Shown here in pieces: positions 1-3,000 of a DNA stretch of 64,000 bases; position 1 is the stretch's first letter; each line of letters starts with the position of its first letter. Source of the stretch: Eledone cirrhosa (Eukaryota); assembly GCA_964016885.1 (NCBI GenBank), contig OZ024742.1, forward strand, positions 309,380,001 to 309,444,000, read 5' to 3'. The position numbers and the translations under genes are program-made. The notes beneath the pieces were generated by a model that was given only the letters and a program-made list of their open reading frames with translations, did not search any database and was not told the DNA's origin.

Positions 1-3000
1 ATATATATACATATACATATATATATACATATACATATATATATACATATACATATATACATATACATATATATATATACATATACATATATATATACAT
101 ATACATACATATATATATACATATACATACATATATATATACATATACATATATATACATATATATACATATATATACATATATATATATACATATACAT
201 ATATATATATACATACATATATATATACATATATATATATACATATATATATATATATACATATATATATATACATATATATATATACATATATATATAT
301 ACATATATATATATATACATATATATATATATACATATGTATATACATATATATATACATATACATATATATATACATATATACATATACATATATATAT
401 ATACATATATATATACATATATATATACATATATATATACATATATATATACATATATATATACATATATATATACATATATATACATATATATATATAC
501 ATATATATATACATATATATACATATATATATACATATATATATACATATATATACATATATATATATACATATATATATACATATATATATATACATAT
601 ATATATACATATATATATATATACATATATATATACATATATATATACATATATATATACATATATATATACATATATATATATACATATATATATACAT
701 ATATATATACATATATATATACATAATATAAGATCAAAAGATGGTTAAAGGAGTTCCATGTATTTTATTATGCGCATTTCAAAAACAAACATCATCATGC
801 AATAATATTTGTGTTTTCATCAGATAAAACAGGAGAACATGATATGAAGGCTAAAAAACACTTGTGGATAGTGCAGTTTTAAATCAACATATATATATAT
901 ATATATACATATATATATACATATATATATATATATACATATATATATATATATATACATATATATATATATACATATATATATATATATATACATATAT
1001 ATATATATATATACATATATATACATATATATATATATATATACATATATATATATACATATATATATATATATATACATATATATATATATATATACAT
1101 ATATATATATATACATATATATATATACATATATATATATATACATATATATATATATATACATATATATATATATATACATATATATATATACATACAT
1201 ATATATATATACATATATATATATATACATATATATATATATATATACATATATATATATATACATATATATATACACATATATATATACATATATATAT
1301 ACATACATATATATATACATATATATATACATATATATATACATATATATATACATATATATATATATACATATATATATATATACATACATATATATAT
1401 ACATATATATATACATATATATATACATATATATATACATATATATATATATACATATATATATATATACATATATATATATATACATATATATATATAT
1501 ACATATATATATATATACATATATATATATATACATATATATATATATACATATATATATATATACATATATATACATATATATATATACATATATATAT
1601 ATATACATATATATATATATATACATATATATATATACATACATATATATACATACATATATATATATACATACATATATATATACATACATATATATAT
1701 ACATATATATATATATACATATATATATATATACATATATATATATATACATATATATATATATACATATATATATACACATATATATATACATATATAT
1801 ATACATATATATATACATATATATATATATACATATATATATACATATATATATACATATATATATACATATATATATATATACATATATATATATATAT
1901 ATATACATATATATATATACATATATATATATATATATATATACATATATATATACATATATATATATATACATATATATATATATATATATACATATAT
2001 ATATATACACATATATATATATACACATATATATATATACACACATATATATATATATATATATATACATATATATGTATACACATATATATATATATAT
2101 ATATACATATATATATATATATATATACATATATATATATACACATATATATATACACATATATATACACATATATATATATACACATATATATATATAC
2201 ACATATATATATATACACATATATATATACACACATATATATATATACACATATATATATATACACATATATACATATACATATATATATATATACATAC
2301 ATATATATATACATATATATATATACATATATATATACATATATATATATACATATATATATATACATACATATATATATACATATATATATATACATAT
2401 ATATATATACATACATATATATATACATATATATATATACATATATATATATACATATATATATACATATATATATACATATATATATATACATATATAT
2501 ATATACATATATATATATGCATATATATATATACATATATATACATATATACATATACATATATACATATATATATATACATACATATATATATATACAT
2601 ATATATACATATATATATACATATATATATATACATATACATATATATATATACATATATATATATACATATATATATATACATATATATATATACATAT
2701 ATATATATACATATATATATATATACATATATATATATATACATATATATATATATACATATATATATATACATATATATATATACATATATATATATAC
2801 ATATATATATATACATATATATATATATACACATATATATATATACATATATATATATACATATATATATATACATATATATATATACACATATATATAT
2901 ACACATATATATATACACATATATATATATACATATATATATATACATATATATATATACATATATATATACATATATATATACATATATATATACATAT

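Follow-up and report, generated by a model that had tools for sequence, protein, structure and literature searches.

A hammerhead-bearing island in a TA/CA microsatellite of Eledone cirrhosa, very probably a solo pseudo-LTR of a Penelope-like retrotransposon

Four described systems come closest to the locus studied here: the Hydra clade of Penelope-like elements (PLEs) (Craig et al. 2021, PMC8557442), the Poseidon element of Anolis, PAc (Frangieh et al. 2024, PMC11167929), the hammerheads of metazoan PLEs (Cervera and de la Pena 2014, PMC4209133) and the non-LTR retrozymes (Cervera and de la Pena 2020, PMC7229834). The Hydra clade is defined by DKT, CxCX5C, CxxC and CxH motifs, the lack of GxKF/Y and a preference for TA (PMC8557442), and PAc is described with paired 3′ ends that represent two internal reverse transcription start sites (PMC11167929). 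A start within the pseudo-LTR (pLTR) is given for Penelope and Chlamys-3 (PMC8557442), while Inr-like motifs and 5′ palindromes are reported for rotifer pLTRs (PMC3846280).

In a window of 64,000 nucleotides of the E. cirrhosa genome, we analysed a short island within a microsatellite, together with the family to which it belongs. With the Hydra clade, including Hydra-1_Obim, this family shares a single ORF with a reverse transcriptase (RT) and, at the C terminus, a GIY-YIG domain, the DKT, RW-, CxCX5C, CxxC and CxH motifs, a hammerhead in the pLTR, insertion into (TA)n, and tandem and inverted copies with a tail. It differs in its 3.73-kb unit, against “generally <3 kb” in that clade, and in its helix II, whose 15 pairs compare with 3-7 in the motifs published for Hydra (PMC8557442). 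Like PAc, it inserts into AT-rich targets, its two fixed 3′ ends set off a tail, and its copies were probably made through an uncut ribozyme; however, the PAc ribozyme overlaps the start codon and its tail is short, whereas the cut lies here ~210 nt before the ATG and the tail measures ~85 nt, and PAc is known from in vitro work while the present family is known from sequence (PMC11167929). The metazoan PLE hammerheads resemble it in their type I architecture, long helix II, short palindromic helix III and predicted dimer, as well as in thousands of dispersed single motifs and opposite-strand pairs 100-700 bp apart, but the present motif is not the helix-III-less minimal form and lacks the usual G10.1-C11.1 pair (PMC4209133). 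Retrozymes are likewise short and AT-rich with a type I hammerhead, yet they form head-to-tail arrays of 150-450-bp units, whereas the island represents one pLTR fragment from an autonomous element (PMC7229834).

The island and its hammerhead motif

The island is the sole non-microsatellite stretch longer than 2 nt across window positions 1-5985, and both of its ends are blurred by TA microhomology (Table 1). An earlier sequence-only reading had placed it at 724-886, an extent now corrected to 726-892, and had described it as a lone insert in a (TA)n tract of about 6 kb; the lone insert was borne out, while the tract proved to be a mixed TA/CA array of ~8.9 kb in total, ~2.8 kb of it left of the window. 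Both repeat polarities flank family copies, and a TA tract made by the element itself is one possibility. Elsewhere in the window, a 23-nt unit is repeated five times at 6815-7067, its copies spaced by short TA runs, and related 48-bp tandem arrays, probably a dispersed repeat family, lie in both orientations at 27791-27898, 31035-31328, 36947-37388, 42100-42214 and 49034-49273.

Table 1 Coordinates of the island, its hammerhead motif and the flanking microsatellite (window positions)
Feature	Position	Strand	Remarks
TA/CA microsatellite, left part	1..725	.	Extends ~2.8 kb past the window edge
Solo pLTR of a Penelope-like element with Hydra-clade motifs	726..892	-	Family fixed 5′ site to short 3′ end; 164-166/166 nt identity to long-copy pLTRs
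Short 3′ end, running into the TA tract	718..735	-	Without the ~85-nt tail of other copies
Predicted distal helix I extension	753..838	-	838-834 with 757-753, past an internal loop; MFE structures; differs between subfamilies
Type I hammerhead motif	761..831	-	Helix I 831-824/768-761, core 823-817, helix II 816-781, GAAA 780-777, predicted cut 769/768
Self-complementary octamer	770..777	-	2-bp helix III in monomer; predicted 8-bp intermolecular helix III in dimer
Family fixed 5′ site, putative RNA 5′ end	888..892	-	ATAT there merges into the TA tract by microhomology; 33/99 sampled copies begin at the site
TA/CA microsatellite, right part	893..6030	.

The minus strand of the island carries the conserved elements of a hammerhead (CUGANGA, GAAA and UH) in the correct order. 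The core reads CUGAUGA, helix I consists of 8 contiguous pairs and is open, helix II has 15 pairs, including three G.U, with one C.U mismatch and a 4-nt loop, and the palindrome AUGCGCAU forms a helix III of 2 bp in the monomer or 8 bp in the dimer. A17 lies at 769, overlapped by AATAAA at 769-764. Thus, the sequence-only reading, which had reported a full catalytic core on the minus strand with a cut at 769/768 and an overlapping AATAAA, was confirmed in sequence and coordinates; its label “minimal” does not fit, since the motif is not helix-III-less but includes a helix III that is short and palindromic. When the island was shuffled with dinucleotides preserved, 8 of 20,000 shuffles contained a relaxed type I motif. 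The search with hammerhead models that the same reading had proposed as a check gave, in Rfam, no hammerhead match to the island up to E=10, which the long helix II may explain; sub-threshold Rfam matches to snoRNAs and miRNAs were rejected as composition effects. The folding energy is unexceptional (z of -0.07 for the island and -1.19 for the ribozyme domain). A third hammerhead-like motif, with a CUGAAGA core and short helices, was seen at a TA-run edge 7.1 kb left of the window (L043, ~2810-2884), and it folds with helices I and II.

Folding predictions indicate that the hammerhead would cleave only as a dimer. In the monomer, helix III had a pair probability of 0.00 and the active fold cost 4.2 kcal/mol. 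The octamer duplex, in turn, was predicted at -10.5 kcal/mol, and two copies co-folded at -43.9 kcal/mol, against -31.8 for two monomers, as the classical swapped dimer with an 8-bp helix III. The dimer co-fold and the unstable monomer fit both the dimer model and the low activity reported in PMC4209133, and they also fit the protein-assisted cleavage of PAc (PMC11167929).

Variation was counted in 193 copies covering the whole ribozyme domain. Eight stem columns had a variant in at least 10 copies, and pairing was kept in all eight of them, one-sidedly through G.U (p ~0.01 under a transitions-only null), while the pair was kept by 2 of the 8 variants found in 3-9 copies and by 5 of the 39 found in 1-2 copies. 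No two-sided compensatory change was present in the stems of these copies; of the covarying stems that the sequence-only reading had named as decisive, the one-sided, pair-keeping part was found and the two-sided part was not. The G.U tolerance holds on the sense RNA only and thus gives no signal of a DNA cruciform. In the core, a common variant occurred only at the free position 7 (15/193), about half of the copies having been collected by means of a pattern in which the core and six helix I pairs are fixed; the counts of column 17 are biased by one search that targeted this column. The pair 10.1-11.1 was A-U in 157/193 and G.U in 34/193 copies, instead of the typical, though not obligatory, G10.1-C11.1.

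The family, its encoded protein and its probable clade

Given these data, we consider the island to be, very probably, a solo pLTR from a Penelope-like retrotransposon that is young and high in copy number. It likely arose when the element reverse-transcribed its RNA into a TA repeat, as the shortest of the resulting products, and it carries a hammerhead predicted to act only as a dimer. This copy itself is non-coding and likely inert. Genome copies were counted by sequence-pattern matching, and the ribozyme pattern gave 9,094 + 9,021 = 18,115 exact matches in the species' own 3.0-Gb genome, compared with 0 for the reversed control. The hammerhead sits in the pLTR of the long copies, and the island is identical in 164-166 of 166 nt to the matching pLTR part of four of them (L031, L032, L033 and L040; 166/166 to L040). 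The unit of 3,730 nt comprises 75 nt, the ATG and ORF, and then ~1.25 kb that closes with the ribozyme and tail, and a 34-nt pattern at the ORF start had 195 genome matches. Partial tandems forming pLTRs, inverted 5′-truncated copies and a tail at one end were all found in the family, as was one locus with ~1.8 units in tandem. The sequence-only reading had offered a Penelope-like 3′ end in a TA microsatellite as one option, and it is this option that agrees with a solo pLTR whose family has ORF-bearing copies in the same genome.

The 798-800-aa ORFs are open in four long copies (L032, L036, L253 and L254) and encode a telomerase-like RT and, at the C terminus, a GIY-YIG domain in a single frame. 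Searches of Pfam and of PDB sequences (the latter by profile) with the whole ORF returned nothing meaningful. The AlphaFold model (pLDDT 83.7) has YRDD at residues 357-360, and its top match was TERT in both Foldseek (E 2.8e-7) and VIA-align (Z 15.7, rmsd 3.9, 342 aligned), other RTs being tied within 1 Z in the latter. The last 146 residues matched GIY-YIG weakly in Pfam (E 0.0015, below the Pfam cut-off); the best folds of this domain were T4 EndoII, Hpy188I and I-TevI (Foldseek E 0.12-0.4), and its LIY..YFG motif is accompanied by invariant Y, Y, G, R, H, E and N.

DKT replaces DKG in this protein, GxKF/Y is missing, the CxCX5C linker is present, and CxxC and CxH stand beside the conserved E and N; judged by eye, the ORF agrees with the rows shown for Hydra in Fig. 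S7 of PMC8557442. Differences from the clade are the RWK position, which reads RWT or RWI, and a low-confidence Asn-rich stretch between RT thumb and linker (residues 582-657 of the L032 protein); N-rich inserts of this kind are described for rotifer Penelopes (PMC3846280). Placed by motifs rather than by a tree, the element appears to belong with the Hydra clade. Its sole named database relative is an Argonauta protein (37%). Since the ribozyme of Hydra-1_Obim of octopus (PMC8557442) differs from the present one, the element is a new family of a known clade, and the supplements of the preprint 10.64898/2026.07.22.740005 may list relatives.

Several further sequences deserve mention. Between TA runs at window 20188-20600 lies a pair of head-to-head pLTRs from a second family, which is more diverged; the pair has its own type I hammerhead (core at 20484 on the plus strand, partner near 20290 on the minus strand) with a long helix II and an AT-only palindrome. 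This second ribozyme had 131 exact matches, and the ORF downstream at one of its loci (L175) is 49% identical to the first family's RT. At another locus (L037), each arm holds two same-strand occurrences of the 5′-site motif with a spacing of 171 bp (G000:C1:18486709 + 18486880; 18493174 + 18493345), and this is a rare short tandem of pLTR sequence; between the arms, a 344-aa frame (7444-6413, minus strand) resembles the thumb and GIY-YIG of another Penelope-like clade.

Copy ends and the templates they suggest

The ends of the copies are sharply fixed and likely record how the element is copied. Among 99 of the first 100 listed ribozyme matches, 45 copies had the short 3′ end, 45 the long one, 3 ran in tandem into the next unit and 6 ended otherwise. 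The short site lies ~40 nt past the cut and the long site ~85 nt farther on. The BLAST-type check suggested by the sequence-only reading, namely for copies that are TA-flanked or linked to an RT, turned out in its favour on both counts, as 85/93 of the 3′ ends run into TA and the long copies carry the RT and GIY-YIG ORF. Head-to-head pairs were common (28 among the 99 copies), and 23 of the 28 combined one long and one short end; several were perfect palindromes centred on the 5′ site. Loose ends joined to (TA)n were seen at both 3′ sites in public contigs as well; these contigs come from four runs of one study and may be from the source sample, and so they repeat the two 3′ ends only.

On the 5′ side, 33 of the 99 copies begin at window 892, 125 nt upstream of the ribozyme cut, 46 run past this site and 20 are without it. 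Genome-wide, 469 copies start there with a TA flank, and 30 of these, when inspected, comprised 20 short solos, 6 long solos and 4 with an inverted partner. Since long and short copies start at the same place, the site is fixed by position and not by length. Copies linked to an ORF behave differently. The 70 inspected of the 195 ORF-start copies had an upstream repeat that passed the 5′ site in 32 cases, ended between this site and the long end in 28 and ended in the leader in 10, with upstream extensions spread out to >1.3 kb. None of the 32 ORF-linked repeats began at the 5′ site, compared with 33 of the 79 site-reaching copies in the general sample (Fisher p 1.4e-6), a test unchanged by reclassifying one copy. 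This contrast argues against a sequence-intrinsic stop: only short copies that were initiated within the same pLTR end at the 5′ site, which is most simply read as the physical 5′ end of an RNA and, most likely, a transcription start. No published count of this contrast was found in our search, which covered mostly literature outside subscription papers, the early Penelope work being among the latter. In one ORF-linked copy (L205), the upstream repeat skips from just past the 5′ site to the long end, dropping ribozyme and tail.

Copying of the cap would give an extra G before a start site. Of 12,762 genome matches, 7,990 had the element's own C directly before the 5′ site, 2,290 a G, 1,808 a T and 674 an A, so that 4,772 had a non-C base and G was 3.4 times as frequent as A. 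Inspection of 20 G sites revealed 19 true junctions; judged by eye, ~5-6 of these need an untemplated G, and about half could have obtained it from the inverted partner. The G excess thus fits cap copying but is confounded by partner-templated G. Three copies (L118, L121 and L123) show the initial ~8 nt of the pLTR two or three times over at their 5′ junction, which looks as if RT had re-primed at the template end, by analogy with telomerase repeat addition.

A template 5′ end made by ribozyme cleavage was examined and found no support. At most 175 matches start at the cut, and 11 of 30 inspected were junctions, giving an estimate of ~64, similar to a rough background of ~58 per position (20/99 copies over 63 nt); A-preceded junctions would escape this count. 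In L142/L143 and three more pairs, perfect head-to-head palindromes have their centre exactly on the predicted cut, and a few copies may come from cleaved RNA.

Based on these observations, a mechanism can be proposed. As suggested by Poseidon biochemistry (PMC11167929), the GIY-YIG domain would nick the TA tract and the RT would initiate internally on the RNA, at the site of the short end ~40 nt 3′ of the cut. The enzyme would then copy through the uncut ribozyme and run off the RNA 5′ end at 892, likely the transcription start. Annealing of the cDNA end ATAT to the TA target would produce a solo pLTR, and annealing to a second cDNA would produce the commoner head-to-head pair. An mRNA from start site to end should give full-length copies beginning at the site, and 0 of the 70 inspected ORF-start copies were of this kind, so that the start-site reading needs a second template pool. 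The data therefore point to start-site RNA as the source of short copies and to multimeric or circular RNA as that of coding copies. The ORF-bearing copies would likely arise from longer-than-unit RNA, which could be multimeric, result from read-through, or be the circle that PMC4209133 proposes as a product of the ribozyme. Within a locus the two pLTRs differ by a median of 2.3% (n=10), against 5.4% between loci, a result that fits circular and multimeric templates alike. A possible but doubtful elaboration is that capped linear RNA with an uncut ribozyme gives the 165-250-nt copies, while dimer cleavage at the two pLTR ribozymes yields a circularised 3.7-kb unit, whose rolling-circle reverse transcription would run through the start site and leave seamless, more-than-unit coding copies.

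Alternative readings and significance

The solo island could instead be the remnant of a head-to-head pair or a longer copy, its other arm lost by palindrome resolution or by recombination between ATAT and the TA tract. The abundance of head-to-head pairs, several of them perfect palindromes, speaks for such a loss, and PMC3846280 suggests a deletion origin for some solo pLTRs; but the island is nearly unmutated and ends exactly at two family sites, and we regard this course as unlikely. It would change the last step only and leave the identity as a solo pLTR unaffected. Somewhat less remote, though still not the expected case, is a 5′ site set not by transcription start but by self-priming on an antisense template or by an endonuclease cutting a short intermediate at ATAT. 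The 5′ palindromes of pLTRs are read as antisense-template self-priming in PMC3846280, and close to the ribozyme, another ATAT-like site has a minor cluster of ends (3/99). If the sequence drove a cut, or microhomology were the cause, the ORF-linked repeats should stop there too, which none of the 32 did; moreover, the G.U-tolerant variation fits selection on sense RNA, and the ~8-nt repeats at 3 of the 20 G junctions fit an RT that re-primes where its template physically ends.

A retrozyme or SINE-like element, non-autonomous but independent, that spreads from its own short transcripts has the defined size, the ribozyme and the hundreds of solos on its side, and the preprint 10.64898/2026.07.22.740005 derives animal retrozymes from pLTRs. 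This was also the other option of the sequence-only reading, a tiny stand-alone ribozyme retroelement; it is most improbable, as no head-to-tail arrays occurred among the 100 listed matches (0/100 with a same-strand neighbour within 1 kb), the solos show the variants of several subfamilies, and the match to ORF-linked pLTRs is near-exact. Finally, the hammerhead might be a folded, non-cleaving passenger or a protein-binding site. The cost of the active monomer fold and the rarity of 5′ ends at the cut would agree with this, as would the in vitro insertion of Poseidon, which ribozyme mutants left unaffected (PMC11167929). Confinement of the common core variant to the free position, on the other hand, together with the retention of the core and a long helix II beside a different palindrome in the second family, makes a non-cleaving role rather improbable, and the reading we favour has a hammerhead predicted to act as a dimer.

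As an object, the island is ordinary, since dispersed hammerhead-bearing pLTRs in TA repeats have already been described for the Hydra clade. The family is young, with open ORFs and ~18,000 copies, which allows a count of its copy ends. What Penelope hammerheads do is unsettled in the literature (PMC8557442; PMC11167929), and the end statistics of this family make their role testable. The contrast between 0/32 and 33/79 would predict RNA that starts with a cap at 892, and also circular or multimeric RNA of 3.7 kb. If true, the reading with capped linear and circular templates would lend support, on the scale of a genome, to the part in making circular templates that Penelope hammerheads were proposed to play in 2014.
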